Source: a virus (taxonomy: Duplodnaviria > Caudoviricetes). From it: a DNA stretch of 64,000 nucleotides. The first letter of the stretch is position 1, and every line of letters begins with the position of its first letter. Location of the stretch: IMG/VR virus record IMGVR_UViG_3300033463_000011, positions 1 to 64,000 of that record. One strand, written 5' to 3'. A program made the translations under genes and the position numbers. This document shows positions 1-35,984 of the stretch, piece after piece. The notes beneath the pieces were generated by a model. The model was not told where the DNA came from. It did not search any database and worked only from the letters and a program-made list of their open reading frames with translations.

Positions 1-1
1 G

Positions 2-103
2 CATGGGAGATTGATAGATGCAGAAGATGTCGATAATCACATCATAGGAAGTGTTGATTTAAGAGATTGTCCGACAATCATTGAGGCAGACAAAGGAGAA
101 TAA
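2..103 (+). CDS. 3' end of MKIVIDI-family small protein (partial)
   Basis: HGRLIDA...PTIIEADKGE* matches C-termini of ORFs at 8895, 9626, 12477. Confidence 0.7.
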   Translation, partial: HGRLIDAEDVDNHIIGSVDLRDCPTIIEADKGE

Positions 104-248: not shown

Positions 249-431
249 ATGGCGTATATTAACAGAAAAACTGGGTACTGGAAATATAGTACTTTGCAGT
301 ATAGCGGATATTCTTGTTCCATTTGCCACGAAAAATATGATGAAAAAGAATATGCAAGAGTTTGGAGATGGAGATTCTGCCCTCAATGTGGCAGCCGAAT
401 GGTTGAAATTAAAGGAGATCCTGAAGAATGA
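249..431 (+). CDS. Zn-ribbon protein
   Basis: CSIC...FCPQCG; SD AAGGAG. Confidence 0.75.
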   Translation: MAYINRKTGYWKYSTLQYSGYSCSICHEKYDEKEYARVWRWRFCPQCGSRMVEIKGDPEE

Positions 432-628
432 ATTGTGTGGATATGAATTGTAAACATTGTTTGGCAAAAGATATGCCTGTCAGTATTCATATAACAAAAG
501 ATGTTGTATGTAAAAGTATTATGGATATTTATTGCGAGTTGGGGCATACTTGTCACGTTCCATTTTCTGATAAAGGTGATCGTGTTTACTGCAATGATTA
601 TGAAAAGAGGCAGAGAGATTATATATGA
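428..628 (+). CDS. Cys-rich hypothetical
   Basis: ATGA overlap, SD. Confidence 0.6.
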   Translation: MNCVDMNCKHCLAKDMPVSIHITKDVVCKSIMDIYCELGHTCHVPFSDKGDRVYCNDYEKRQRDYI

Positions 629-843
629 CAAAGCAAGCATTACCGAAAATGAGTTTAGATTCAATACTAATCTATATAGCGTTTGCTTTATTAATCATAC
701 TAGCTGCAATGCTTATGGTTGAAAAATTCAAAGAAACACTATCTTCTAAGGTAGGGGATACATTATATTCTAGGCCTACTTGGTATGAAGAAACAACAAC
801 TACAAATACTATAGAAGAATCGTTAATAAGTTTAAATAATTAG
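625..843 (+). CDS. Small membrane protein
   Basis: One hydrophobic helix. Confidence 0.6.
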   Translation: MTKQALPKMSLDSILIYIAFALLIILAAMLMVEKFKETLSSKVGDTLYSRPTWYEETTTTNTIEESLISLNN

Positions 844-858
844 TAGAGGGAAAAGAAT

Positions 859-1167
859 ATGAAATGTATAAATGCAGAAGAACTTGAAAAGACATTAAAG
901 AAGAGGCTTCATATCCCAGATACTTCACCGGAGCAAACAATATTTAATCGTGGAGTACAGACATGTTTGATGGAATTAAGCAAAGCTGAGAAAATTGAAG
1001 TTGCCGAGGGTGAATGGGTTCCGAGACTGCATGCAAGTGAGAATGATATCTTTATTTGTTCTAACTGTAAAAGAGAGTGCGGTTATGATCCAAAGTATTG
1101 CCCTAACTGTGGGGCAAAGATGTCTAATCCCTTTATTGTGGTTACAAACATCTTGGAAGATTTATGA
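859..1167 (+). CDS. Zn-ribbon protein (GEW...CPNCGA)
   Basis: CSNC...YCPNCGAKM. Confidence 0.8.
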   Translation: MKCINAEELEKTLKKRLHIPDTSPEQTIFNRGVQTCLMELSKAEKIEVAEGEWVPRLHASENDIFICSNCKRECGYDPKYCPNCGAKMSNPFIVVTNILEDL

Positions 1168-1391
1168 TGGGCAGTATAAATAACATAGCATATCTTAACG
1201 GAACCCCGATTTACATAGCTACACAATGTATTCAGCGGCGTAGACATAGGAAATGGCGTACTAATAAAAAGTGGGCAAAGCGGTACGGTTACATAGAACT
1301 TAATATGATGCCGGTACATTCAATTATGTATATTGATGGTGTGATCTGGATGACTAAAAGAGATTTTGAGGAATTGAGGTTAGATAAATGA
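1164..1391 (+). CDS. Basic hypothetical
   Basis: RRRHRKWRTNKKWAKRYG; coupled start/stop. Confidence 0.7.
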   Translation: MMGSINNIAYLNGTPIYIATQCIQRRRHRKWRTNKKWAKRYGYIELNMMPVHSIMYIDGVIWMTKRDFEELRLDK

Positions 1392-1630
1392 AAACTGACA
1401 TTGAATATGTGAAGGATATTTTTCAAAAATTTAATATTGAGGGTTGGAATTTTTTACAGGCTAATCCAAATGATACTTACACATTTCAATGTACTTTTTG
1501 CAGATGCGCATTTGCATTACCGGATATAGATAGTATTGCGAATTATCACTATTGTCCGAGTTGTGCAAAGTTTATGATTAGTCATACTAAAAATAATTAT
1601 CCTTGGAGCCGAGATAATAAAGGAGAATAA
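1388..1630 (+). CDS. Zn-ribbon protein
   Basis: CTFC...YCPSC. Confidence 0.7.
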   Translation: MKTDIEYVKDIFQKFNIEGWNFLQANPNDTYTFQCTFCRCAFALPDIDSIANYHYCPSCAKFMISHTKNNYPWSRDNKGE

Positions 1631-1633
1631 AGA

Positions 1634-1879
1634 ATGAGTAAGATATGTTTAAGAGATATTGCAGAGGGGCAGACAGGTTGGTTTTGTGACGATTGCGGTA
1701 AACGTATTTTAGGGGTTTCAGAAAATTTATTTAGCCGACCTCTTATTGATAAATGTCCACATTGCGGAGTAGTTTTTACTGATTATGAATTATGCAAAAC
1801 TCGCATTGATATGCACAATAGGCTTATAAGCGAATTTCCTGAATTAGCAATAGGGTTTAATAAGGAGAATAAAGAATGA
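1634..1879 (+). CDS. Zn-ribbon protein, paralog of 9384..9614
   Basis: Shared GVSENLFSRPLIDKCPHC. Confidence 0.8.
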   Translation: MSKICLRDIAEGQTGWFCDDCGKRILGVSENLFSRPLIDKCPHCGVVFTDYELCKTRIDMHNRLISEFPELAIGFNKENKE

Positions 1880-2025
1880 CAAATGAAGTCGCTTTTTACG
1901 GTGGTCATATTATCTGTATGCAAGGCTCAATCAAGGCTGAAAATTTAGATTTTATACTAGATTTGATTGATGAATATATCGAATTAGCTGAGATGCAAGA
2001 TATGAGAGGTGAGAATAAGAAATGA
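1876..2025 (+). CDS. Hypothetical 49 aa, paralog of 33767..33898
   Basis: MTNEVAFYGGHIICMQGSIKAENLDFILDLIDEYIELAEMQDMRGENKK. Confidence 0.75.
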   Translation: MTNEVAFYGGHIICMQGSIKAENLDFILDLIDEYIELAEMQDMRGENKK

Positions 2026-2300
2026 GAATAGTAAATCAAACACATTTTTATGACATCATAATAAATGGAAATACAGTAAAACCTTCTCAAGAATACACTA
2101 CTGGTGAAATGATGTTTAATTCTCAAGCAATATTTTCTGATATAGGCTCAGTAGAAATTATTACTGAATATGGTAAAAGGACATTCAGGAATTATGGGAA
2201 TCTTAAAGCCTATGAGGATAAAGTTCTTAAAGATGCAAATGGTATGCCACAGATTATGGTAGTGCATACTATCCCACAGAATCTGTACAAAGGAGAATAA
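2022..2300 (+). CDS. Hypothetical
   Basis: ORF between linkers. Confidence 0.7.
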   Translation: MRIVNQTHFYDIIINGNTVKPSQEYTTGEMMFNSQAIFSDIGSVEIITEYGKRTFRNYGNLKAYEDKVLKDANGMPQIMVVHTIPQNLYKGE

Positions 2301-2303
2301 AGA

Positions 2304-2681
2304 ATGGGTAGCGAGTTAATCAACCGTGAGGTTTTGAATGAAATATGGAACTTATATAAAAAGTATCAGCCATATTTGGCTACGAATGTATACGAGTTTG
2401 GAGTTGCTTTGAAAGACCTTATCGACAATGCTCCGGCCATAGAATACACATTCGAAGAGGCATTTCAGAAAACCGTTTGTGAAAAACAGTTATATTGCCC
2501 CGAAAGACCGCAAGGCGAATGGATAACAAATAAGGAATACATAGATAAGGAATTCAATGGGCATTACGAGGGCAGTTGTTTTAACAGTCCGTATAATTGC
2601 AGTTGTTGCGGATATTCCCCTGAGGATAACAGACCTAAGTTTTGTCCGAATTGTGGTGCAGATATGCGGAAAGGCGGTTGA
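2304..2681 (+). CDS. ERPQGEW Zn-ribbon protein
   Basis: RPQGEW...CSCCG...FCPNCGADMR. Confidence 0.8.
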   Translation: MGSELINREVLNEIWNLYKKYQPYLATNVYEFGVALKDLIDNAPAIEYTFEEAFQKTVCEKQLYCPERPQGEWITNKEYIDKEFNGHYEGSCFNSPYNCSCCGYSPEDNRPKFCPNCGADMRKGG

Positions 2682-2739
2682 AAATAATGTGTGAAGAATG
2701 GATAGTAATATCAAATAGAAAATGGAAGGAGAATAAAGA

Positions 2740-3012
2740 ATGACTAATGAAGACGCAATACATATTTTATTAAATAGTAATGAGTATCATCATGCGAAAG
2801 GTGATTTGCCACATTCTGCTGCAAGTATTGAGGCATTTAATAAAGCAGTAGAGGCATTGAAAGCAGAAAGACCGCAAGGCGAGTGGATAGAATATGATAC
2901 GGCTTGTCATCATTATAAATGCAATCAATGTAATGCTGATTATAATAGATTCATGGTAAAGCCCAACTTCTGCCCTAATTGTGGGGCTGAGATGCGAGGT
3001 GATACAGAATGA
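2740..3012 (+). CDS. ERPQGEW Zn-ribbon protein
   Basis: RPQGEW...CNQC...FCPNCGAEMR. Confidence 0.8.
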   Translation: MTNEDAIHILLNSNEYHHAKGDLPHSAASIEAFNKAVEALKAERPQGEWIEYDTACHHYKCNQCNADYNRFMVKPNFCPNCGAEMRGDTE

Positions 3013-3209
3013 AGTCATTTACTACTTACCGAGTTAATCAACCTGATACTACTAGCGGACATAGTATAAGCATAACAACTACACTTTACGGATCCGAAGA
3101 AGAAATCTCATATCTTAAAAAGAACTGTGAAGAAAATATCGGTAGCGGTTTACTTCAAGACTATGCAAGTCCTTTAACTTCTGCTACGGGGGATAAAGAC
3201 GGATTATGA
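3009..3209 (+). CDS. Hypothetical
   Basis: Coupled ORF. Confidence 0.6.
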   Translation: MKSFTTYRVNQPDTTSGHSISITTTLYGSEEEISYLKKNCEENIGSGLLQDYASPLTSATGDKDGL

Positions 3210-3496
3210 GCATGTTAAAACACCGTGACGAGTTTTTAGAGTTAGATCAGCAAAGCGGTACGGTATTCGAACCTAGTAAACCTACCCAGGAATCTGATAA
3301 TTTAGATTTCACCTATACAAATAAGCCCGAAGGTGCAGAGATAATGACAGATGAAGCTTGTATCTGCTATTTAGAAAATATCAGTAAGATGTTTGAACGA
3401 GGTAAAGAGAATTGTGCTGGAGATGCATTAGAGCTTCAGCAGAAGCATATCGATGCTTTACAGTATGCTATTAAGGAGATGAGAAAGAATCGTTAA
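3206..3496 (+). CDS. Hypothetical
   Basis: Coupled ORF. Confidence 0.6.
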   Translation: MSMLKHRDEFLELDQQSGTVFEPSKPTQESDNLDFTYTNKPEGAEIMTDEACICYLENISKMFERGKENCAGDALELQQKHIDALQYAIKEMRKNR

Positions 3497-3517
3497 GATA
3501 TAGAAGGAGGATGAAAA

Positions 3518-3691
3518 ATGTTAAAACCCGATAATAACGTTCCTAATCAGTGGATTTTTGAAAGGATAAATATACCTACCACATATATAAAATGTCCAGT
3601 TTGTGGTTTTTCCTTAAATTTGGATAAATTAGGACAAGGAATCCCATATTTCTGCGGTGGTTGTGGAAAAGACATGAGAGGTGAGAAATAA
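3518..3691 (+). CDS. Zn-ribbon protein 57 aa
   Basis: Own translation: CPVCG...FCGGCGKDMRGEK; SD AAGGAGG. Confidence 0.75.
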   Translation: MLKPDNNVPNQWIFERINIPTTYIKCPVCGFSLNLDKLGQGIPYFCGGCGKDMRGEK

Positions 3692-4002
3692 TGATTGAAA
3701 ATGATATGTATATCCGAGCAATACCTGTTTATGACGGCGATACTGTAATTGCTATTCGTAACGAGTGTGTAATTACCAAAGAGGAGTTTATCGAGTGTTA
3801 TAATACCTGGATAAAGGAGAATCCAGATACCAAAATCGGGAAATGGCAGTTTGAACGAAATGATCCACAAAGGGGAGGTAACATACATAGCTGCAGTCTC
3901 TGTGGTCAAGAAGTTCATTCGTATTCTACTGATTATAAAAACAAACCTTGTGTACACAAATACTGCCCTAGATGCGGAGCAAGAATGGAGAACACTAAAT
4001 GA
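3691..4002 (+). CDS. Zn-ribbon protein
   Basis: GKW...CSLCG...YCPRCGARM. Confidence 0.8.
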   Translation: MIENDMYIRAIPVYDGDTVIAIRNECVITKEEFIECYNTWIKENPDTKIGKWQFERNDPQRGGNIHSCSLCGQEVHSYSTDYKNKPCVHKYCPRCGARMENTK

Positions 4003-4319
4003 CTTTTTCAGAGCGATTAAATATAATCAAAGACTATGAAAGATGGCTTAAATCTGTAAATGATAAGAATATGTTTACTATTTCTGATTGTCTTGAAACA
4101 TTTTTAGGCTATCTAGAAATTCAAGAGTTGCTGAATGACAGAGCTACCGGTGAGTGGATAGCGGACAAAAATAGAACATATTCTGAAAATGAAGATACTT
4201 GGGAATGTTCTGTTTGCCATGAGCCATTTACATTAATTGAAGGAACTCCAGAAGATAATCTCTACTATTATTGTCCGAAATGCGGTGCAAGGTTAATTGC
4301 AGATGGAGGGGAGAAATGA
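3999..4319 (+). CDS. Zn-ribbon protein
   Basis: GEW...CSVC...YCPKCGA. Confidence 0.8.
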   Translation: MTFSERLNIIKDYERWLKSVNDKNMFTISDCLETFLGYLEIQELLNDRATGEWIADKNRTYSENEDTWECSVCHEPFTLIEGTPEDNLYYYCPKCGARLIADGGEK

Positions 4320-4552
4320 GTTTACCTAGCAACTGGAATAAAAGCAGATGGATCTGCAAAGAACTTGGCTATCATCAATACGAACCGGCAAGCCCTTTGA
4401 AGTATGGAAGTTTCTGTAGAGGTACATATGAATGTCGAGCTTGTGGGAAGGTAAAGCCTGCTGAATTATTACAAAATGATGACATTGTGTACGGAGAGGT
4501 CGATTATAAGGCATTTATACGCAAAAATCAGAGCAGCCGTTGGAATTTCTAA
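4316..4552 (+). CDS. Cys/His hypothetical
   Basis: ATGA overlap; CRACG. Confidence 0.6.
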   Translation: MSLPSNWNKSRWICKELGYHQYEPASPLKYGSFCRGTYECRACGKVKPAELLQNDDIVYGEVDYKAFIRKNQSSRWNF

Positions 4553-4562
4553 AATATATTAT

Positions 4563-4586
4563 AATATCTACATATATGTAGATATT
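4563..4586. promoter_or_regulatory. Perfect 24-bp palindrome, possible operator or hairpin
   Basis: AATATCTACATA-TATGTAGATATT just upstream of an RBS. Confidence 0.5.
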
Positions 4587-4607
4587 TTTATATCAGAAAG
4601 GAAACCA

Positions 4608-5354
4608 ATGAAGCAATTTAATAAAAAAGAATGGATGACTGAAGAACAGTTCATCAAAACAATAAATACACTATTAGCATTTGCAGCAATATTTATGATG
4701 TATGGAGTTATCTATTATGCAGCAAAAGATCATACAAAACCTGAAGAACCCGTAGAGGAAGTCGAGGAAATTACTTTAATAGACATAATAGAAGAGAACT
4801 CATATACACAAGAAGAAGTAGAACCAGATAATTTTAGAAATAAAGCGTTAATCGAGGAGGCTGAATTACGGAATCTCTGGCTGAATGTACCGATTCATTA
4901 CACTACCTTGGAGCTTCGATATTTAGGTCAGTATTTTATTACTTCTTACTGCCCGGAAGAATGCGGAGGCTCCTGGACTACAAGCAGCGGTACAACTTGT
5001 CATTATTCAGATGATTGGTCAACACCTACGACTTGTGCTATAGACAGAAGATTTCATAGGTATAATGAGTTACTTCAAGTGGGAGATCCTGATGATCCTA
5101 ATAAGAAAATTTATAAAACAGAAGATACCGGTCCGGGCGTACAAGGTCGCTGGGTAGACTGCTTCGTAGAAACGATGAGCGAGGTGAGGTCGTGGAACAC
5201 CGGCTATAGGTCAGTATACTCCGTAAGTTATGAAGAGCATGTATTAGAAGGAAGGAGAATTATATACCATGAATATTTTAACTGTGATTTACTGTTCAGC
5301 AGCTTTCGCTCTGGGGATCTTCTGTGGAATGATTTTAGAATTAGTTGTTGGTAA
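4608..5354 (+). CDS. Membrane-anchored 3D-domain (peptidoglycan-active) protein
   Basis: N-terminal TM; ITSYC...AID...EDTG...VDCF three-Asp pattern; SD AGAAAGGA. Confidence 0.65.
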   Translation: MKQFNKKEWMTEEQFIKTINTLLAFAAIFMMYGVIYYAAKDHTKPEEPVEEVEEITLIDIIEENSYTQEEVEPDNFRNKALIEEAELRNLWLNVPIHYTTLELRYLGQYFITSYCPEECGGSWTTSSGTTCHYSDDWSTPTTCAIDRRFHRYNELLQVGDPDDPNKKIYKTEDTGPGVQGRWVDCFVETMSEVRSWNTGYRSVYSVSYEEHVLEGRRIIYHEYFNCDLLFSSFRSGDLLWNDFRISCW

Positions 5355-5514
5355 TGTCTATGTAAATAATCTTGAAAAAGACAATGCAAGACTTCGAGAA
5401 GAAAATGAGACCTTAAAGGCTGCGCGTTCTGTATACAGACCGAGGATTGGAGCGATTGAAGTAATTCAAGATCCGAATCGTGGTCAGCCAGAAGATTACA
5501 TCGGCTATTTTTAA
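5269..5514 (+). CDS. Small TM plus coiled-coil protein
   Basis: Hydrophobic N-terminus, heptads; SD AAGGAG. Confidence 0.6.
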   Translation: MNILTVIYCSAAFALGIFCGMILELVVGNVYVNNLEKDNARLREENETLKAARSVYRPRIGAIEVIQDPNRGQPEDYIGYF

Positions 5515-5917
5515 TACATGAAGTAGTACGAGGCGAAGAATGAAATACGATTGCTCGATCTGCTTTAACAGAAAATATTATCCACTTAAAGCAATAGAAG
5601 ATGTATGCAACTTTTGTAAAGAGCATAATGGGAGATTTTATAAACCTGATTTAACAGATATTAAGGGATATGTGATTGATGTTGTAAAGGAGAAAGGTGA
5701 TGAATAATGAGCAAGCAAAAGAATGTTTAATCAAGCATAGCAAAAATGGTGATTTCAAATCTGATGTTGAATTAGATACGGCTATCGACCTTGCTATCGA
5801 TGCTTTGAAATATATCACAAACGATACTCCCGAGGTCAGTTATAACGAGAGATGGTTAGCCTATCAGCAAAGAAAACCTGATAATGACGGTGCTGAATGG
5901 AGGTGTAATGGTGCATT

Positions 5918-6214
5918 ATGACAAGTGAAGATATAAATAATCTGATTGAGATTTTAGCGAGATATTCCACAATACCAAATGACGGGGAGAGTTTTGATGA
6001 TATTGTTAAAGCCTATGATGAAATTATTAGAATCTTAAATCAATATGCTGAAATAAAGTTATGCGTAGATGAGTTTTATAAAAAGACTGCAAAAGAAAAG
6101 CCCATTGAAACTCCTATTGAATTAAGTTTGCACTTAAAGACAATGGAAGCACACGAAAGGTGTTTGGCTAATCAGTTACTTGGCATATTTAAGGAGAACA
6201 CAGATGACAAGTGA
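5918..6214 (+). CDS. Hypothetical
   Basis: SD GGAGGTG; starts MTSEDI. Confidence 0.65.
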   Translation: MTSEDINNLIEILARYSTIPNDGESFDDIVKAYDEIIRILNQYAEIKLCVDEFYKKTAKEKPIETPIELSLHLKTMEAHERCLANQLLGIFKENTDDK

Positions 6215-6410
6215 AGATATAACATTCTGCTCTAAATCAGATTGCAAGAATACAAAATGTGAGAGAAACCCATTACATCTAGTCGGTCATTGTACTGTAA
6301 ATCGTTTGGATAAATTTCACAGAGAAGAAGCAGATAATTGTAAGAAGTATAAATACAAGTTCTGCGTGTGTACCAATTATTATACTAGCGAAGGTGAATC
6401 CAATGAATGA
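6204..6410 (+). CDS. Cys-rich hypothetical
   Basis: SD AAGGAG; also starts MTSEDI. Confidence 0.65.
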   Translation: MTSEDITFCSKSDCKNTKCERNPLHLVGHCTVNRLDKFHREEADNCKKYKYKFCVCTNYYTSEGESNE

Positions 6411-6762
6411 TCTAATAAGTAAATCTGCATTACTGCAGAAGATAGATGAGGAAAGAGAATATCTTAAAGCAAGAGGTCTATTTGGAGCAGAACATATACT
6501 TGTTCATAATTTTCGGGAATTAGTTGAAAATGCACCAACAGTACACCATCCAAATTGCGATAGTTGCGAGGATAAAGCAAAACAATATTCATTAGGTTTT
6601 CAAGATGGATATTTGACAGGAAAGGAAAAACCGCAAGGCGAATGGATAAAAATAGGAAAATATACTTGTGAATGTTCAAGATGCGGCGAAAGTGTGTGCG
6701 GTAATTTATTGAATTTTTGTCCTAATTGCGGTGCAAGAATAATAAAAGGCGGTGCGGAATGA
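6403..6762 (+). CDS. KPQGEW Zn-ribbon protein
   Basis: MNDLISK...PQGEW...FCPNCGA. Confidence 0.8.
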   Translation: MNDLISKSALLQKIDEEREYLKARGLFGAEHILVHNFRELVENAPTVHHPNCDSCEDKAKQYSLGFQDGYLTGKEKPQGEWIKIGKYTCECSRCGESVCGNLLNFCPNCGARIIKGGAE

Positions 6763-7504: not shown

Positions 7505-8013
7505 ATGTATCACGATTCGGTAATGCAGTTCAAACCTAGATACCGCAAAATTGGTACATACTTCGGTATTCATAATGCTGAAAAGATTGCAGATGAGTAC
7601 AGAGATGATTGGAGAGATGTAGTCATTACTTTTTCTTATACCAATCATGGCAAATTCAATTTTTACTCAGTATGGGTAAAAGATTATACCTTGGAGGAAG
7701 TGTTAAGTGACTGCATCTGAAATGCGAGAACAGTTTATACTACAGAATCCTCTGTATCTTATGTATGATGAAATGGGAGTACATAGGTGGACTTTATCTG
7801 ATGAAGTACATCAGATTCGGATTGAAGAAGAATTGAAAGAGTGTGAATCGTTAATAACTACATCACAAATTTTAAAGGATACTCATTATGACAAATGATT
7901 TAGTATCACAAGTTGTTATCGGTATAGCTATTGCAGTAATCATGCTGATTGTTGCAATCATTGTAACTAACCTTCTTGAGAAGGAAGACAAATAAATTTA
8001 GGAGGATACTAAT

Positions 8014-8205
8014 ATGAACAATGACATTATTTTTAGAATATCAGAGGTAGATGATCATAGCAGCATCTTTCATTCTGATGATGACCGTATTGAGGATAGG
8101 GACAACGATATCGTGGTTTCTACTAGTAAGGTTGACAACATGAAAGCTGCCATTACTGCAGTCCTTGAAGATGAAGGATATAGCGTAAGCTTCGAGGTAG
8201 ATTGA
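8014..8205 (+). CDS. Hypothetical
   Basis: SD AGGAGG; ends in linker B. Confidence 0.7.
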   Translation: MNNDIIFRISEVDDHSSIFHSDDDRIEDRDNDIVVSTSKVDNMKAAITAVLEDEGYSVSFEVD

Positions 8206-8206
8206 T

Positions 8207-8485
8207 ATGGGTAGAGGACAATATACTGATGAACTTAAAGAAAAGTACAACATTACATGTAAGCAATTACGATTGCTCCCATATTTTCAATATTTATTAA
8301 TGAATAATGGAAGCATTGATCCCCAAAAAATTGATTCTGACGAAAGAGAAATACTGCAAACTTGGCGAGATGAGGGGAAAATAACATTTTCAATGTCTGA
8401 ACCATGTACTTGTACCAGAGATTTCTGGGATTGGATGAATGAGATTCTTTGGGAAACTTATGTACCACACTATGAGGAAGATTGA
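8207..8485 (+). CDS. Hypothetical cassette gene
   Basis: Starts and ends in linker B. Confidence 0.8.
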   Translation: MGRGQYTDELKEKYNITCKQLRLLPYFQYLLMNNGSIDPQKIDSDEREILQTWRDEGKITFSMSEPCTCTRDFWDWMNEILWETYVPHYEED

Positions 8486-8894
8486 CATGGCAGAGCAAGG
8501 CAGAGATTTCTTCAAAGATAAAGCCTCAAAGTTATATGGCATACCTTATGAAGAGGTAACAGAAGATCAGCGATTAGCGGCAAAGAATCTTTTGATGGAT
8601 TATCTGTATTGTAGGGTAGATAGTTACCCGGCAAATGATTGTCTTATAACTGCAAAATTGCTTGAACCGACAAATTCAGAAAATTCTTTGAAGAATTTGT
8701 ATAACCGGTTTATTAGAAATTTAGAGTGAGGTAGAGTAATATGCCGAAGAATTGGTGGGAACAAGAAGTTGAATACAGAAATACACTTCAGGAAATGTTA
8801 GATAGTGGCATATTTACTAATCAGCATCAGTTAGATGCTTTGGAGTATGCAATTTTGCTAATACAGAAGGAAATAGATGGTGAGGTAGATTGAT

Positions 8895-9158
8895 ATGAAG
8901 ATAGTAATTGATATTCCAGAAAAGTATCTCAATAGTAATATCATTGATGTTACTCTAATTACAGGTGCAAATAACACTATTACTGATGTTAATGTGGAAG
9001 ATGAGTATGCAGAGTTTCAAGTTCTTCCTAAGGGGCATGGAGATTTGATTGACCGTGATGCACTAATCCAAAAACAATTTATTCCTAATGTTGGGTTTGA
9101 ACTTGTTGATTTAGATGACTTAAAAACCGCACCAACAGTAATTCCTGCGGATAAGTGA
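8895..9158 (+). CDS. MKIVIDI-family protein
   Basis: LPKGHGDLID...PTVIPADK. Confidence 0.8.
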   Translation: MKIVIDIPEKYLNSNIIDVTLITGANNTITDVNVEDEYAEFQVLPKGHGDLIDRDALIQKQFIPNVGFELVDLDDLKTAPTVIPADK

Positions 9159-9383
9159 GGTAGAGTGATATGAAAAAAGTTGAATTTCAAATAACTTTTT
9201 CAGAAGATTGGCATACCGTAAGTATTGCTACTAAAGACACTCAGTACGATTATCTTAATCGAGTTTTTGAGGGTAAATATGCAGAATATAATTACTTGCG
9301 TATAATTAGTTGGATTATTGAGATTTCAAGATTGATAAATAGTGAAGGTAATGTGGCTTTATTTATAAATGAGGTAGATTGAT

Positions 9384-9614
9384 ATGTCAAAAATAATTCT
9401 TAAAGAGATTTCAAAGGGCATATGCCGTTGGTTTTGTGATAATTGTAATCAACGAATTGACGGAGTATCTGAAAATCTTTTCAGCAGACCTCTTATTGAT
9501 AAATGTCCTCATTGTAATTCGGTATTTTCTGACTACGAATTATGCAAGAGTCGAATTGATATGCAAAATAAGGTTTTTTCTGAATTTGGCATTGTTAATC
9601 CGGATAAGAAGTGA
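9384..9614 (+). CDS. Zn-ribbon protein, paralog of 1634..1879
   Basis: Shared core. Confidence 0.8.
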   Translation: MSKIILKEISKGICRWFCDNCNQRIDGVSENLFSRPLIDKCPHCNSVFSDYELCKSRIDMQNKVFSEFGIVNPDKK

Positions 9615-9625
9615 GGTAGATTGAT

Positions 9626-9874
9626 ATGAAGATAGTAATTGATATAGAAGAAGGTAGATATAACTGGATTATGTCCCACGCATCAAATCATCCCAATGAT
9701 TATGCCAATACTACAGATTTGGTTTTCCGCAAGGCAGTAGAATCGGGAACAGTTCTCCCAAAAGGATACGGAGATTTAATTGACCGTGATGTTGCTAATG
9801 AAGAACTTAGTGATATAAGTCATGGAGATGATTTATTGAGATACGTCCCTACTGTAATAAAAGCAGATAAGTGA
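9626..9874 (+). CDS. MKIVIDI-family protein
   Basis: LPKGYGDLID...PTVIKADK. Confidence 0.8.
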   Translation: MKIVIDIEEGRYNWIMSHASNHPNDYANTTDLVFRKAVESGTVLPKGYGDLIDRDVANEELSDISHGDDLLRYVPTVIKADK

Positions 9875-9885
9875 GGTAGATTGAT

Positions 9886-10083
9886 ATGACAGATATGGAA
9901 AAGTTTATGAAACTCTTTGATGAAATCGGTATTAAGTATGAAGTAAATGGTAATACTATTTATATTGATGATTTTGAATGTGATGGCTCAGAAGAATTAG
10001 GTATTTCATTCTGGGACGGGGAAGATTATCCCGAAGGAAGTTATCACGAATTTTGGGTAGTTCCCGGATGCTTTAAGAGGTAG
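9886..10083 (+). CDS. Acidic hypothetical cassette gene
   Basis: Between linkers; stops on the linker TAG. Confidence 0.75.
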   Translation: MTDMEKFMKLFDEIGIKYEVNGNTIYIDDFECDGSEELGISFWDGEDYPEGSYHEFWVVPGCFKR

Positions 10084-10089
10084 ATTGAT

Positions 10090-10317
10090 ATGACATACAC
10101 AAAAGCACAGTATAAAAGAGCATTTGAAATTGCTTGTGATTTGCTTAATGGTAATAATCTTTATGGCATAGACGACGACAAGTTATTTGCTTTAATTATG
10201 CAAGAATACGAGGTAGTTTCTGCTTTTGAGTACCAAAAATTCATTTTGGAACATCTTGATAGGTTTGCTGACAATGAGGAAGTCAGGTTTAAGGCTATCG
10301 AGAGATTTGGTTGGTGA
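10090..10317 (+). CDS. Hypothetical cassette gene
   Basis: Between linkers. Confidence 0.75.
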   Translation: MTYTKAQYKRAFEIACDLLNGNNLYGIDDDKLFALIMQEYEVVSAFEYQKFILEHLDRFADNEEVRFKAIERFGW

Positions 10318-10328
10318 GGTAGATTGAT

Positions 10329-10541
10329 ATGGAAGGCATTGAAAAAGGAATCCGGTGGGAAGTGATAGATTGGAGAAGTCCTACTGATATTACTATCTAT
10401 GATCTTCAAGGAAATGTATTACATACAGAGAAGTATCAATGGATGCACGAACCTATCTTTGGACCTGATATTGATGATTGTCAGGAGATAGATAAGATAT
10501 TGGATAGCTTAATTAAGAAGTACGGTAAAGACGATAATTGA
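10329..10541 (+). CDS. Hypothetical cassette gene
   Basis: Between linkers. Confidence 0.75.
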   Translation: MEGIEKGIRWEVIDWRSPTDITIYDLQGNVLHTEKYQWMHEPIFGPDIDDCQEIDKILDSLIKKYGKDDN

Positions 10542-10557
10542 ATTGAGGTAGATTGAT

Positions 10558-10758
10558 ATGGAAGATAAGATTATACGAGCACCTTTTACTTCAGAAGAGC
10601 CATTTATATTAAAAGCGATGGCAGGGTGCAATAGTAAGTTAGATAGGTACGAGAAGATAGAGCAAATAATTAGTGAATACAAAAGACAGCCAAGTGGAAA
10701 CGTATTCACTAATGATAAGTATTTCAGAAGAATACTTGAAGTGTTTGAGGTAGATTGA
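10558..10758 (+). CDS. Hypothetical cassette gene
   Basis: Between linkers. Confidence 0.75.
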   Translation: MEDKIIRAPFTSEEPFILKAMAGCNSKLDRYEKIEQIISEYKRQPSGNVFTNDKYFRRILEVFEVD

Positions 10759-10771
10759 GAGGACAAGAAGA

Positions 10772-10954
10772 ATGACAATAAAACACATAGCGTTGAAACG
10801 ATGGCAATATCGATACTTTCCAAATTTGGGGCAACTTGCTGTCTTCTGCCCATATTGTGATGTCAACGTAAACGTGATGTTAGACCAAGATTTAGAGTTT
10901 CAATATTGTCCGTATTGTGGTGAAGAAGTAGATATAAGTAAGGTTGAAGAATAA
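10772..10954 (+). CDS. Zn-ribbon protein
   Basis: CPYC...YCPYCG. Confidence 0.75.
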   Translation: MTIKHIALKRWQYRYFPNLGQLAVFCPYCDVNVNVMLDQDLEFQYCPYCGEEVDISKVEE

Positions 10955-11175
10955 TGGAATGGATAGCAGAACATAACATACCGATAATAGATATTAACTA
11001 TGATACAAAATCTTGTCAGATCAACTATCATGGAAGGACTTACGGCTGCCCGATAAGACAGCATAATGGCGAGTGGTATTTCAGTTTTGACGATAGGTGC
11101 GTCTGGTATCTAGTTAAATAATGTTGAATCGTTATAATAACTGAATATCAATAATCCTAAAGGAGGTAAGATTGT

Positions 11176-12069
11176 ATGTTATTTAAAGATTTAAACGTAG
11201 GTGATGTATTTAAACTTATTAAAGGTGATGCTACATTTATTAAGATTAATGCAGTAAATGACAATGAGTATCCATTTAAGAGATATTATAATTACCCATC
11301 TAATATACTTATATTAGATAGATTGCACTACGGGGTACTTTCTCCTATGGCAGAAGTTTACCGTGTTAAAGAATATCACGGAAAAGAGCAGGAGAAGACT
11401 CCATTAAAGGAGCTTCTTGAGAAGCATCAATCTGATATTCACAAACAGAACTTTATGACATATGGCGGAGTCCCTTATGACAAAATATCAAAGGATGCAC
11501 TGCATTATGCTGAAGCCGATGTAAGAAACACCATGGCTTTCCTTGAGATGTGTCAGGAATATCAGAAAGTATCATTTCCCGGTATGAAGAAAGTGATCTT
11601 TAATGACCCTGCTACTATTGTAATTTGGGGTGATGGTTCCAAGACAGTAGTTAAATGTCAGAACGGAGAGAAGTTTGACAAAGAAAAAGGACTTGCTCTC
11701 TGTTATATGAAGAAGGCTCTCGGTAATAAGAGTAACTTCAACAATGTCTTTAAAGAATGGATTAAACCTGAAGTTACCGCAGTTTATGATGAAAGCCACC
11801 CTGAACTCGGAATACAGGATATACCTTCGAAGAATAAGACGGTATATCCTGGTGATATATGCAGAATTACAGCGAATGATTTGACTTTCATTCATCAGTA
11901 TATGCAGGACAATAGTATAACTGATCAGAAGATAGCAGATGGTTCAGGACTGTCTATTAGAACAGTAAAGCGGGCCTTATCTGGATGCCCCGTCTTAAAG
12001 CCTACAATATCAAAGATTAGTAAATATTTTGATTTCCCTATTGACACTACAAGATATGCAGAGGATTAA
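11176..12069 (+). CDS. Phage protein with central conserved domain and C-terminal HTH
   Basis: KKVIFNDPATIVIWGDGSKTVVKC...DKEKGLA; XRE-like QKIADGSGLSIRTVKR. Confidence 0.65.
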   Translation: MLFKDLNVGDVFKLIKGDATFIKINAVNDNEYPFKRYYNYPSNILILDRLHYGVLSPMAEVYRVKEYHGKEQEKTPLKELLEKHQSDIHKQNFMTYGGVPYDKISKDALHYAEADVRNTMAFLEMCQEYQKVSFPGMKKVIFNDPATIVIWGDGSKTVVKCQNGEKFDKEKGLALCYMKKALGNKSNFNNVFKEWIKPEVTAVYDESHPELGIQDIPSKNKTVYPGDICRITANDLTFIHQYMQDNSITDQKIADGSGLSIRTVKRALSGCPVLKPTISKISKYFDFPIDTTRYAED

Positions 12070-12476
12070 GATATGAGTGGTGCGGAAGAATGACAATATA
12101 TAAGGCACAGATTAAAGATAAGACATATTATTACGGTGATAAACCATTGCGTATTATATCCATAATTATTCACGCTATAGAATTAGGACTTATTATTTAT
12201 TTGCTTGTGAGGTGAAAATGTATAATCAGAAATTAATAAGAACATTAGAAGATAGATTTGATAAGTTACAGGCATATCTTTTCAGATCATTTGATGGAGA
12301 AGATCTGTATTCTTTTATTGCATCCATTATATATGATAAGGACTATGAAGATTGTTGCGAATGGAAGAATGGAAAACCTAACATACAAGGTAAAGAACTT
12401 CGTGATCGGGTAAAACAGTTTCTTATTCCTGTTGTAGAAGAATGCGGGGGCATTTCAGAAAGTGTGGAAGATTGAT

Positions 12477-12782
12477 ATGCAGATAGTAATTGATATTGAT
12501 GAGAATGTATTTACAAGGCTGTTTGACAATGGTGTTGATACAAGTTCGGAAGACAGGGATGCTATTGATAGAGCAGTTCGTAATGGCATAGTTCTGCCTA
12601 AAGGGCACGGAAGACTGATAGATGCAGATAAGATACTGTACTTTAGGTGTTCTAATAATGTTTTAGACTGTCCAGAATCTTACGACTTTATTTGTCAGCA
12701 TTGTGAGTACGGAGTTGCAAGTAAATTTCGAATTGATGAAATGAATACGATCATTGAAGCAGATAATAGTGAGGAAGACTGA
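12477..12782 (+). CDS. MKIVIDI-family protein
   Basis: MQIVIDI...LPKGHGRLIDAD...IIEAD. Confidence 0.8.
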   Translation: MQIVIDIDENVFTRLFDNGVDTSSEDRDAIDRAVRNGIVLPKGHGRLIDADKILYFRCSNNVLDCPESYDFICQHCEYGVASKFRIDEMNTIIEADNSEED

Positions 12783-13251
12783 TATGACACTATTAGAGCA
12801 ATTAGTTACCAATTCTGGTGAAACCCTAGTTATAAACAAAGACATGGATGATAACTTTGTTGTATGGATTGATAAATGTGATGTGTATAACAATCCTGGT
12901 GCATTAGGTGCAGGCGGTAGAGGGAAAACTGTTGAACAGGCAGTTAAAGATTATATACAGAAGATCAGCGGCAAGACCTTGGTGTTTAATTATGGTACTG
13001 AAAGCGAAAGATTTGCCAAGTTCATATGTATATTTGATGAGGAAGATTGATATGAAAACTAAAGATCAGATACAAAATGAGACAGATGGGGTAGTAATTG
13101 AATCGTCAAAATTTAGTGGATTCAACCCATTTGACGGAGAAGGATATTATCACGATGGCGAAATAGAAACTGATATCTGTGTATGGGACGATTTGAGCCT
13201 ATTAAAGAAATATCCATATGTATGTTGGTATAATAAGTGAGGCAGATTGAT

Positions 13252-13650
13252 ATGAACGACGTAGATAAAGCCTATAATGCTGGATATATTGCAGCACTTG
13301 TAATGGCTAAAGCACATCATATGAAAGTGGTAGGGCAGTGGGATTTTTGCAATCCAGATGAGTATGTGGGTCATATTTCCGAAGCGGAGCTGTTGGCACT
13401 GAAAGAATCTGCACATATTCCGTATTGTTCTATCTGTGGGAAGCCTGCTTTATTTCAAGCAATAGATAACGACAAGTACCTTTATGCACTGTCAGATTAT
13501 TGCCCAAGTTGCGGTGCAATATTAAATCCAGAAATTGCCAATAAAAATCCAGAAGATTCTATTAAAGAGCAGGTGTCTGAGATTCAGGATGTTTATAACC
13601 ATATGCACAGTGATTTGGGGACTGCTCTTGAGTCCGATGAGGTAGATTGA
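13252..13650 (+). CDS. Zn-ribbon protein
   Basis: CSICG...YCPSCGA; starts in linker B variant. Confidence 0.75.
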   Translation: MNDVDKAYNAGYIAALVMAKAHHMKVVGQWDFCNPDEYVGHISEAELLALKESAHIPYCSICGKPALFQAIDNDKYLYALSDYCPSCGAILNPEIANKNPEDSIKEQVSEIQDVYNHMHSDLGTALESDEVD

Positions 13651-13851
13651 TATGAGTGATACCGAAAGAATCCGACTACTCGAAGAAACTATTTTGTTAC
13701 TGATTAAGGGTGTAGATATACATTGCATGCAGTTTGATAATAGAGGTTTATCTGCGGATCAACAAGATATTCTTATGAAAAATATCGCAACACTCTCCAT
13801 TGATTCCAAACGAGTTATTGATGAGGAAGATTGATCTGACAGGAGAAGAAA

Positions 13852-14184
13852 ATGGATAGACTACATAATTGTCCTAATTGTGGTGGATACCTTAATGACC
13901 AGGGTAGATGTGAATTTTGCGGTTCCAAGGTTTATGATCTCTGTGATATTGATTTAGCACTTGATCCTACAAAATCCCCTAAGAAGACATATCTGCGAAT
14001 AAAGACAGATAAGGGAATTTGGACTGTTCCAGTATTTGCCGATACTATGAGTGTATCTACCCATACCTCTTATTTAGATTCTACGTTAGGGTTGACTCCA
14101 ACTTATGTATCTTGCCCAGCATACTCAGAAATTGACTTACATTTCTATGCTGTGGGTGAGGGCGTTTTCGAATCGGAGGAATAA
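13852..14184 (+). CDS. Double Zn-ribbon protein
   Basis: CPNCGG...CEFCGS. Confidence 0.75.
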   Translation: MDRLHNCPNCGGYLNDQGRCEFCGSKVYDLCDIDLALDPTKSPKKTYLRIKTDKGIWTVPVFADTMSVSTHTSYLDSTLGLTPTYVSCPAYSEIDLHFYAVGEGVFESEE

Positions 14185-34633: not shown

Positions 34634-34664
34634 ATATATCCAATCATATATGCGAGGTGATGAT

Positions 34665-35984
34665 ATGATCCCACTTAACTCTGCTCAAACAGCTGAACTT
34701 GCTGAGTTCTTAGGTCACGATCCATCTATTGATGGAGAATGGTCAATTACTCGTTCGCTTAATAACGGTCCGTGTATATACGCAGTTAATTCAAAGGGTA
34801 CTCTAGTAGTGAGATTAACTTGTATAGACCGTGCAGGTAGGATTCAAAAGCCTAGGTTATCTTCTATACGAGAGTACCCAGATCATTATTTGTTTTGCAA
34901 TTTAAATAATAAAGATATTAGAATGCATCGACTAATGGCCTATGTGTGGTTAGATGATTACGATGAAAATCTAACAGTTAACCATAAAGACGGAAACAAG
35001 CATAATAATGATTACCATAATTTAGAAATGCTGTCAGTCCATGATAACTGCATGCATTATCATCATTCTGATGAAATGTTACAAAAACGTAATCGGGATT
35101 ATGCGTATCATGGAACTCGGATCAAGGGCAGGATTCATATAACTAATGGAGTTGAATCCAAGATGATATACGAATCTGATGGAATTCCAGAAGGATGGTG
35201 GAGAGGTCGTTCAGATAGCGTGAAAAAGAAGTTGTCTGAATCATGCAAAGGGCATTCACCTTCTAATGCAGGTAAGTATTCTATAACTAACGGAATTGCA
35301 GTAAGATATATTTCTCCTGATGAAACTCTCCCTCAAGGATGGTCGAGAGGAGGGATTAACATGTCTGAATCTAAAAAGCAAAATATACGAGATAAAATGA
35401 CTGGAAAGGTGTTTGTTCATAGAGGTAAAGAAAATAAACGTGTATATTCTTATGAATTAGCTTCTTATTTATCCGAAGGTTGGGAATTAGGCATGTATGC
35501 AAAGCAATGGGATAGAACAGATACAGAATATACTGAAGAACGAAGAGAACATATGCGAAAAATAATGACTGGAAGTGGAAACCCTATGTATGGAAAGCAC
35601 TTATCAGAAGAAACAAAAGCTAAGTTGAGTGCTGCAAATAGAAATAGAGTGGTTTCTGCGGAGATAAGAAATAAAATAAGCGAATCTAAAAAAGGATATC
35701 ATCACACAGAAGAAGCTAAACAGAAGATGCGAGATGCTATGAAAGGGCGTGCAGCTAATAACACGGGATATATCTGGATAACTAATGGAAAAGATAATAA
35801 ACAAATTCCTGAAAGTGAATTGAATAAATATCCCGATTATAGGAAAGGCATATCTCGAGAGAAAGTCATACGAGTATTTGTCAACGATGGATATATTAAT
35901 CATAAGATCCCTATTTATGAACTTGATAGCTGGCTATCTCAAGGATATGTTCGAGGGTTATTGAAACATTCGAAAAATTCTTAA
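34665..35984 (+). CDS. HNH homing endonuclease with NUMOD3 and ITNG repeats
   Basis: HRLMA...VNHKDGNKHNN...NLE; NPMYGKHLSEETKAKLS. Confidence 0.85.
   Translation: MIPLNSAQTAELAEFLGHDPSIDGEWSITRSLNNGPCIYAVNSKGTLVVRLTCIDRAGRIQKPRLSSIREYPDHYLFCNLNNKDIRMHRLMAYVWLDDYDENLTVNHKDGNKHNNDYHNLEMLSVHDNCMHYHHSDEMLQKRNRDYAYHGTRIKGRIHITNGVESKMIYESDGIPEGWWRGRSDSVKKKLSESCKGHSPSNAGKYSITNGIAVRYISPDETLPQGWSRGGINMSESKKQNIRDKMTGKVFVHRGKENKRVYSYELASYLSEGWELGMYAKQWDRTDTEYTEERREHMRKIMTGSGNPMYGKHLSEETKAKLSAANRNRVVSAEIRNKISESKKGYHHTEEAKQKMRDAMKGRAANNTGYIWITNGKDNKQIPESELNKYPDYRKGISREKVIRVFVNDGYINHKIPIYELDSWLSQGYVRGLLKHSKNS

Follow-up and report, generated by a model that had tools for sequence, protein, structure and literature searches.

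A 16-nucleotide stop-and-restart linker joins small genes in phage arrays of permuted order

The swapping of phage modules at short conserved linkers is an idea more than 40 years old, and linker or boundary sequences reportedly entered the modular theory of phage evolution with Susskind and Botstein in 1978 and Botstein in 1980. In lambdoid phages, boundary sequences are short conserved strings at gene borders, proposed as homologous crossover sites for modules. To our knowledge, clear examples of linker-based module swapping are few, and the known boundary sequences are likewise few and often loosely conserved. Most mosaic joints are now ascribed to random recombination followed by selection. 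Here, we describe a 16-nucleotide (nt) linker, GAGGTAGATTGATATG, that recurs at the junctions of a small-gene array in the window, the 64-kb stretch of DNA analysed, which is the start of a complete-rated 200,233-bp phage record in IMG/VR (G000, the genome of the window's phage). It is compared with arrays in viral contigs G001–G005 and in further contigs (L-numbers), all of them metagenome assemblies of uncultured phages.

Our literature search found no described ribosome-site linker array of this kind; the nearest papers returned concern two systems. The promoter-early stem-loop (PeSL) elements are mobile regulatory cassettes of T4-type phages (Arbiol et al. 2010, PMC2839356; PMC4122927), composed of a sigma-70-type promoter and a terminator hairpin, with each gene forming its own transcription unit (PMC2839356). 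PeSL mini-circles have been shown experimentally (PMC2839356). The start-associated sequences (SAS) of Cluster K mycobacteriophages are asymmetric 13-bp repeats that include a ribosome site and precede start codons by a few bases (Pope et al. 2011, PMC3203893). They share one orientation, accompany non-structural genes and sometimes hold the upstream stop, and their function is unknown (PMC3203893). The copies are scattered, at 11–19 per genome, half of them with an extra inverted repeat; they follow gene families, and shuffling at them has not been reported (PMC3203893).

Linker anatomy and array composition

Eighteen copies of the linker with ≤2 mismatches (nine exact, nine with one or two mismatches) lie between 8194 and 13838 of the window, all on the + strand and all at gene junctions. 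At ≤3 mismatches the whole window holds 20 matches, 18 of them in this stretch, against a mean of 1.17 and a maximum of 5 in dinucleotide-preserving shuffles (n=100), none of which reached 20; the mismatch search and the shuffles together bear out the junctions named in the original prediction. Across the whole 200-kb genome the linker is confined to the same stretch. Its bases 1–5 (GAGGT) form the Shine-Dalgarno site of the next gene, followed by an 8-nt spacer and ATG, and 16 of the 18 copies end in the next gene's ATG. The copies at 10747 and 13823 are 5′ halves only, in which the stop part is kept and a different ribosome site follows; they close sub-array 1 (8194–10762) and sub-array 2 (12464–13838).

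Together with the T that usually precedes it, the linker provides one stop codon per frame, closing any upstream open reading frame (ORF). Upstream genes of the window stop at the TGA of positions 10–12 in 10 of 18 junctions (proteins ending EVD or EED), at a TGA formed with the preceding T in six, at the TAG of positions 5–7 in one (gene 9886–10083) and 4 nt upstream of the linker in one. The earlier claims that stops in all three frames are used (10, 6 and 1 junctions) and that the linker supplies both GAGGT and ATG were therefore accurate.

Arrays with the linker were identified in 20 contigs including the window's phage, amounting to 112 junctions, 64 of them exact. The exact 16-mer is multi-copy in five other viral contigs, namely G001 (175 kb, 6 copies), G002 (a 68-kb fragment, 20 in-array copies), G003 (51 kb, 2), G004 (a 467-kb megaphage, 6 in-array) and G005 (105 kb, 2 in-array); 13 metagenome contigs also carry multiple copies, including L194 (212 kb, 7 copies), and a search of viral contigs with the leader protein added just one more array. 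Information content over 105 junctions is ~1.4–2 bits per base across the 16 nt and 0.1–0.4 bits on either side, and the preceding base is T in 76/112. Counts of upstream genes ending at the three in-linker stops are 58, 22 and 6; in 86/105 junctions the distance from stop to ATG is 1, 6 or 11 nt. Across the 112 junctions, positions 10–12 read TGA in 101, TAA in 10 and otherwise in 1, while positions 5–7 read TAG in 82 and TAA in 12. Substitutions in the linker preserve its stop codons, which indicates that the stops, GAGG and ATG are under selection as signals. The upstream ORF contains the ribosome site or ends with it, and its stop falls within a few bases of the next start, as in translational-coupling junctions; from this anatomy and the stop-preserving substitutions, the linker almost certainly has a coupling role.

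The features of the array are given below; cassette proteins were clustered into families (F-numbers) at ≥55% identity, and aa denotes amino acids.

8014..8205, +, leader gene, 63 aa, acidic, ending ..FEVD, with an ordinary ribosome site (AGGAGG); linker 1 is made by the last codons of this gene
8194..8209, +, linker 1, exact; upstream stop at positions 10–12
8207..8485, +, cassette, 92 aa, no family found
8474..8489, +, linker 2, 2 mismatches, EED form; stop at positions 10–12
8487..8729, +, cassette F04, 80 aa, 68–70% aa identity to G002 and G004 cassettes at other array positions
8728..8743, +, linker 3, 2 mismatches, TAA replacing TGA; the upstream gene stops at the TGA made with the T before the linker
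8741..8893, +, cassette F16, 50 aa, matching G002 from one linker to the next at 88% aa and 90% nt identity
8882..8897, +, linker 4, exact
8895..9158, +, cassette, 87 aa, MKIVIDI..GHGDLIDRD paralogue family
9157..9172, +, linker 5, 1 mismatch
9170..9382, +, cassette, 70 aa
9371..9386, +, linker 6, exact
9384..9614, +, cassette, 76 aa, CxxC zinc-ribbon-like, 71% aa paralogue of gene 1634–1879
9613..9628, +, linker 7, exact
9626..9874, +, cassette, 82 aa, MKIVIDI family
9873..9888, +, linker 8, exact
9886..10083, +, cassette F17, 65 aa, ending at the linker's TAG; 83% aa identity to a G001 gene
10077..10092, +, linker 9, exact
10090..10317, +, cassette F18, 75 aa
10316..10331, +, linker 10, exact
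10329..10541, +, cassette F01, 70 aa, homologues in G002, G004, L125, L159 and L194 with different neighbours in each
10545..10560, +, linker 11, exact
10558..10758, +, cassette F02, 66 aa, homologues in G001, G002, L135, L194 and L198
10747..10762, +, half linker whose stop part runs into another ribosome site; closes sub-array 1
10772..12215, +, gap between sub-arrays, holding four genes joined in other ways, of 60, 55, 297 and 41 aa; promoter-like motif at 11126
12218..12475, +, cassette F03, 85 aa, ordinary site upstream and linker downstream; 93% aa identity to G002
12464..12479, +, linker 13, 2 mismatches
12477..12782, +, cassette, 101 aa, MKIVIDI family
12771..12786, +, linker 14, 2 mismatches
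12784..13050, +, cassette F05, 88 aa, 88% nt identity to G002 linker to linker, flanks unrelated
13039..13054, +, linker 15, 1 mismatch
13052..13240, +, cassette, 62 aa
13239..13254, +, linker 16, 1 mismatch
13252..13650, +, cassette F19, 132 aa, weak zinc-ribbon signal
13639..13654, +, linker 17, exact
13652..13834, +, cassette F06, 60 aa, 89% identical in nucleotides to L194 and L154
13823..13838, +, half linker that keeps just the stop part and closes sub-array 2

Leader homologues ending ..LFEVD open the arrays of G001, G002, L194, L279, G003 and G005; the leader gene of the window matches no Pfam family. A hybrid half linker like that at 10747..10762 is present in G002, where F03 has linkers on both sides. 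Sub-array 2 carries mostly the linker form with A at position 5 (EED), whatever the cassette family, and F05 has the T form in G002; linker variants thus group by place and not by cargo. The cargo had been described as mostly unrelated, and this holds at the BLAST level for most cassettes, with the exception of a three-member paralogue family (8895, 9626, 12477). PHROGs and Pfam returned nothing informative for the 14 cassettes and two leader proteins tested, and the MKIVIDI family yielded an AlphaFold model of unusably low quality (mean predicted local distance difference test score 47). The cargo probably comprises host-takeover or anti-defence genes.

All array genes lie on the + strand, as do almost all genes of the genome. 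Between 1 and 16 kb, neither promoter-like sites (50, against 70 in shuffles) nor terminator-like sites are enriched, and the 16-mer contains no −35/−10 pair. None of the 13 inverted repeats in 8000–14000 recurs at junctions, and the linker has no dyad symmetry. Because promoters and terminators are not enriched and no hairpins recur, the genes appear to be organized in long polycistronic units. They are probably expressed early. An 11-mer, GAATCGTTATA, is probably a phage-specific promoter: its 16 copies in G000 are all on the + strand, 20–60 nt ahead of a ribosome site and start (window 11126, 36049, 57447 and 60003, and 12 more up to G000 199667). The copy at 199667 opens the small-gene block, and that at 11126 falls in the gap between the sub-arrays.

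The linker may pair with the 16S 3′ tail over 9 bp with one bulge (−10 kcal/mol), given a tail sequence that we assume, from general knowledge, to be the usual form; such extended pairing possibly explains the exact conservation of the spacer, in part only. No antisense complement of the linker of ≥12 nt occurs in the genome. In bacterial genomes the linker 17-mer was found as single copies only (35 records, no arrays), so that the arrays are phage-specific, and nucleotide searches of GenBank phages, whether in near or distant mode, returned nothing matching the array. In three related Ruminococcus/Ruminococcoides genomes of the Ruminococcus bromii group (L241, L258, L265), the exact 17-mer is present at a single conserved junction of host genes, a weak hint at host range or at where the junction originated.

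Upstream of the linker array, the window carries at least eight CxxC zinc-ribbon paralogues (249–6762) that are 30–45% identical, a family also expanded in G001. Two other junction types occur there: a ribosome site plus TAA before ATG (107, 1634, 1876, 2304, 2740) and an ATGA overlap whose proteins have MRGEKE-like tails (further junction sites at 2022, 3691 and 6904). Both are abundant in G001, G002 and G005 too. Such block-specific junctions fit either within-block homogenisation or block-specific regulators.

Cassette exchange among phages

The window's phage has close kin in G001 and G002, whose collinear core proteins are mostly 50–85% identical, whereas G003, G004 and G005 are distant, sharing few proteins at 25–45% identity. 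Their G+C contents are 39%, 27% and 44%, respectively, and that of the window's phage, which has Firmicutes-phage-like genes, is ~35%. Cassette order is not fixed among these relatives. The window reads F04, F16, F14, F17, F18, F01, F02, then F03, F05, F19, F06; G002 reads F05, then F16, F02, F28, F04, F03, F01. Families recur between arrays in permuted order: among homologous cassettes in different arrays (63 pairs, counts that are not independent events), a same-family neighbour was found in 3/116 comparisons (2/60 upstream, 1/56 downstream), compared with 7/43 for small genes outside arrays at the same loci and 37/42 for adjacent core genes of G000 and G001. For F02, neighbours differ in 14/15 pairs.

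Breakpoints fall at the linkers. Inter-array BLASTN matches begin within one base of a linker and stop at the last base of the next. Thirteen cassette pairs are flanked by linkers at both ends in each contig; averaged over them, identity is 28% in the 40 nt upstream, 95% in the 5′ linker, 84% in the cassette, 95% in the 3′ linker and 32% in the 40 nt downstream. The F34 cassettes of G001 and L194 differ at 5/216 bases, with identity starting and stopping at the linkers. G001 has the leader followed by F02, and L194 has the leader, a 70-aa cassette and then F02, an indel of one cassette and one linker. Between these two contigs, F34 and F02 are 97% and 93% identical in nucleotides, whereas the neighbouring SNF2 helicase, 101-aa gene and leader are just 63–70% identical, indicating recent transfer.

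Sharing also extends to a distant genome. The core proteins of G004 are 25–33% identical to those of the window's phage, and the 25 kb around its array share four to five linker-bounded blocks of 172–275 nt at 73–86% nt identity. Other nucleotide-level sharing in these 25 kb comprises one 1.2-kb TnpB gene and three stretches of 84–125 nt. The TnpB gene (IS605 OrfB, Cas12f-like; G000 109386–110519, outside the window; L276) is 90.6% identical in nucleotides to the G004 copy, which, for an otherwise distant phage, is independent evidence of DNA exchange between the two. Taken together, the comparison of 20 contigs supports the proposal that linker-bounded single-gene cassettes are gained, lost and reordered, with breakpoints at linkers and not outside them and neighbours almost fully permuted. 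No result indicates that the motif acts as a translational site and nothing more.

The small-gene block follows an SNF2/HARP helicase in G001, G002, L194 and L279, and a Rad50/SbcC-like gene in the window's phage. The original prediction had suggested looking for a recombinase or annealing protein elsewhere in the genome. A RecA/UvsX-like protein is encoded, as are a UvrD helicase and two SNF2 helicases with the HARP (annealing-helicase) domain; no tyrosine or serine recombinase was found (PF00589 and PF00239 have no match anywhere in the 200-kb genome, though they do in control genomes), nor were ERF or RecT single-strand annealing proteins. With its RecA/UvsX-like, Rad50-like, SNF2/HARP and UvrD genes, the phage has general recombination available, as in T4. 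The second SNF2/HARP helicase (G000 183064–185775; L238 1065–3776) is split by an intein with an HNH endonuclease, and a free-standing HNH homing-endonuclease-like gene (444 aa) lies at 34650–35984 of the window. The ends of the record repeat each other (window 1–70; G000 200160–200233), so that the genome is circularly permuted or terminally redundant, though the record is labelled linear.

Competing explanations

On balance, we regard the linker as a translational-coupling junction that probably doubles as a crossover point for cassette exchange. It would link small accessory genes, probably early ones, in long units that have no promoter or terminator inside, the translation of each gene being coupled to that of the preceding one. 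Every junction carries this string, as do many phages that occur together, and general recombination, by homology or microhomology, would therefore cross over there, with the phage's own RecA/UvsX-like and Rad50-like proteins as the likely machinery. Crossovers within a genome or between co-infecting phages would delete, insert or reorder single genes, and every product of exchange would stay correctly terminated and translated. The linker may cause crossovers rather than merely survive them, and circular intermediates may arise in the process. This recombination role, which we hold to be somewhat better supported than not, draws on breakpoint precision, the one-cassette indel, the recent transfers and the low conservation of neighbours. 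Several points weigh against it. Sixteen bases lie at the low end of the length range for homologous recombination, and the evidence for shuffling is all comparative and derived from metagenome assemblies. Other small-gene blocks of these phages are also plastic (7/43), and for 16 homologous pairs one member belongs to a linker array while its counterpart in the other genome does not. Cargo found in the arrays also comes with other junctions: gene 1634–1879, the paralogue of 9384–9614, is flanked by linkers of a different type, and the G001 homologue of F17 carries a different junction type. These cases indicate that the linker is not the sole route of movement. Surviving breakpoints would equally fall at gene borders if recombination were random and selection kept the junctions that work, and the exact conservation of the 8-nt spacer is unexplained by coupling alone; a factor may bind the site.

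One alternative is that the linker is only a translational or regulatory site, an optimised stop-and-restart that is perhaps factor-bound and times early genes, with shuffling left to illegitimate recombination and selection. The linker does lie always exactly at a start codon and on one strand only, its stops are preserved by selection, its 9-bp pairing with the assumed 16S tail (one bulge, −10 kcal/mol) is available, stereotyped junctions of other kinds mark other blocks of these genomes, and small genes outside arrays shuffle too. The Cluster K sequences also provide a precedent for a conserved start-codon site (PMC3203893). However, breakpoints fall within 16 nt in every pair tested, including the 97%-identical and hence recent transfer; neighbour conservation is lower in arrays than elsewhere (3/116 versus 7/43); and a single optimal ribosome site would not predict, and is argued against by, the differing junction types of adjacent blocks. 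Regulator searches point the same way, since the genome holds no antisense match of ≥12 nt and no homologue of T4 RegA/RegB was found, the latter a weak negative as control genomes also gave no matches. We therefore consider this alternative rather unlikely. A dedicated integron-like capture system, in which an unrecognised recombinase or homing-type nuclease acts on the linker, would account for the precise exchange unit and for strict linker conservation across distant phages, and the genome does carry HNH homing endonucleases and a TnpB gene. Yet it lacks detectable tyrosine and serine recombinases, ERF and RecT, the linker has neither dyad symmetry nor a hairpin, and only the small leader gene was found beside all arrays, which makes such a system improbable.

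Two further accounts are more remote still. Were the array a tandemly duplicated gene family that has diverged beyond recognition, with only the junction kept alike by selection, the three paralogous cassettes (8895, 9626, 12477) and the clear zinc-ribbon paralogue families with other junctions in neighbouring blocks would be expected. Most cassettes, however, are mutually dissimilar and differ in length and make-up, and the same cassettes recur at 70–97% nt identity, in other orders, in other phages, which within-genome duplication cannot yield; duplication as the whole explanation was rejected on these grounds and is very improbable. That the permuted orders are assembly artefacts of the repeat is the least credible account: although all sequences are metagenome assemblies, the repeat (16–20 nt) is shorter than usual assembly k-mers, the cassettes differ by 3–30% between contigs and so are not the same reads joined differently, and the arrays come from many samples with reading frames intact.

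Beyond the coupling-and-crossover reading, we tentatively raise the possibility, which we would put below even chances, that the 16-mer serves a whole community as an adaptor. In a shared anaerobic gut or rumen-type habitat, unrelated jumbo and mega phages might draw on a common pool of single-gene cassettes, exchanged through the 16-nt identity with excised cassette circles as intermediates. The linker would then be conserved because it is the exchange site, while its stops, ribosome site and start keep every product functional. If true, this would constitute a recombinase-free analogue of the integron that works through translation signals.

Relation to described systems

With 112 junctions in 20 contigs, single-gene units, near-complete reshuffling and both recent and distant sharing, the question of whether a linker causes crossovers or survives them becomes testable. 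The arrays also show how phages can keep a large, fast-changing set of small accessory genes expressed without individual promoters, and the linker suggests a compact natural design for plug-in polycistronic cassettes.

The resemblance to integrons lies in the array form: same-strand, promoterless, mostly unrelated single-gene cassettes with a joining site at the 3′ end. In contrast to integrons, no IntI, attI or attC hairpin is present, and the repeat is a translation signal that lies partly inside coding sequence. The description of an integron-like array without attC hairpins or integrase thus stands for the form and for both absences, and not for an integron-like mechanism, which we rejected given the lack of tyrosine and serine recombinases and of attC-like hairpins at junctions. 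Like SAS, the linker is asymmetric, includes the ribosome site, lies just before start codons and keeps one orientation; unlike them, it does not match the consensus GGGATAGGAGCCC, belongs to phages of a different host phylum and stands at consecutive junctions.

The closer parallels are PeSL elements and boundary sequences. PeSL and the linker are both short repeated regulatory motifs between small accessory genes in hyperplastic regions, recombination between repeats accounts for the insertion, deletion and replacement of single genes at PeSL and probably also at the linker, and it draws, or at the linker would draw, on the phage's own UvsX-type recombination. As with PeSL, gene gain, loss and replacement between relatives are bounded by the repeats. 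The linker differs in being 16 nt long, without a sigma-70-like promoter or stem-loop terminator, and in acting at the level of translation within a polycistronic unit. In line with the modular theory, linkers (95%) are far better conserved than the cassettes they flank (84%) or the surrounding sequence (~30%), and flanking modules assort independently (3/116 neighbours kept). Where boundary sequences are few and loosely conserved, here one 16-mer is found in 112 copies over 20 contigs, bounding single-gene units in distant jumbo and mega phages. The array had been put forward as a candidate for an undescribed gene capture or shuffling system; it fits instead the linker hypothesis of modular evolution, as a counterpart of the T4-type PeSL (PMC2839356). 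It looks like a large, clean and quantifiable instance of a gene-shuffling adaptor, an old idea rarely seen this clearly, and the linker is a variant of the Susskind–Botstein linker, the ribosome-site counterpart of PeSL, and not an integron.

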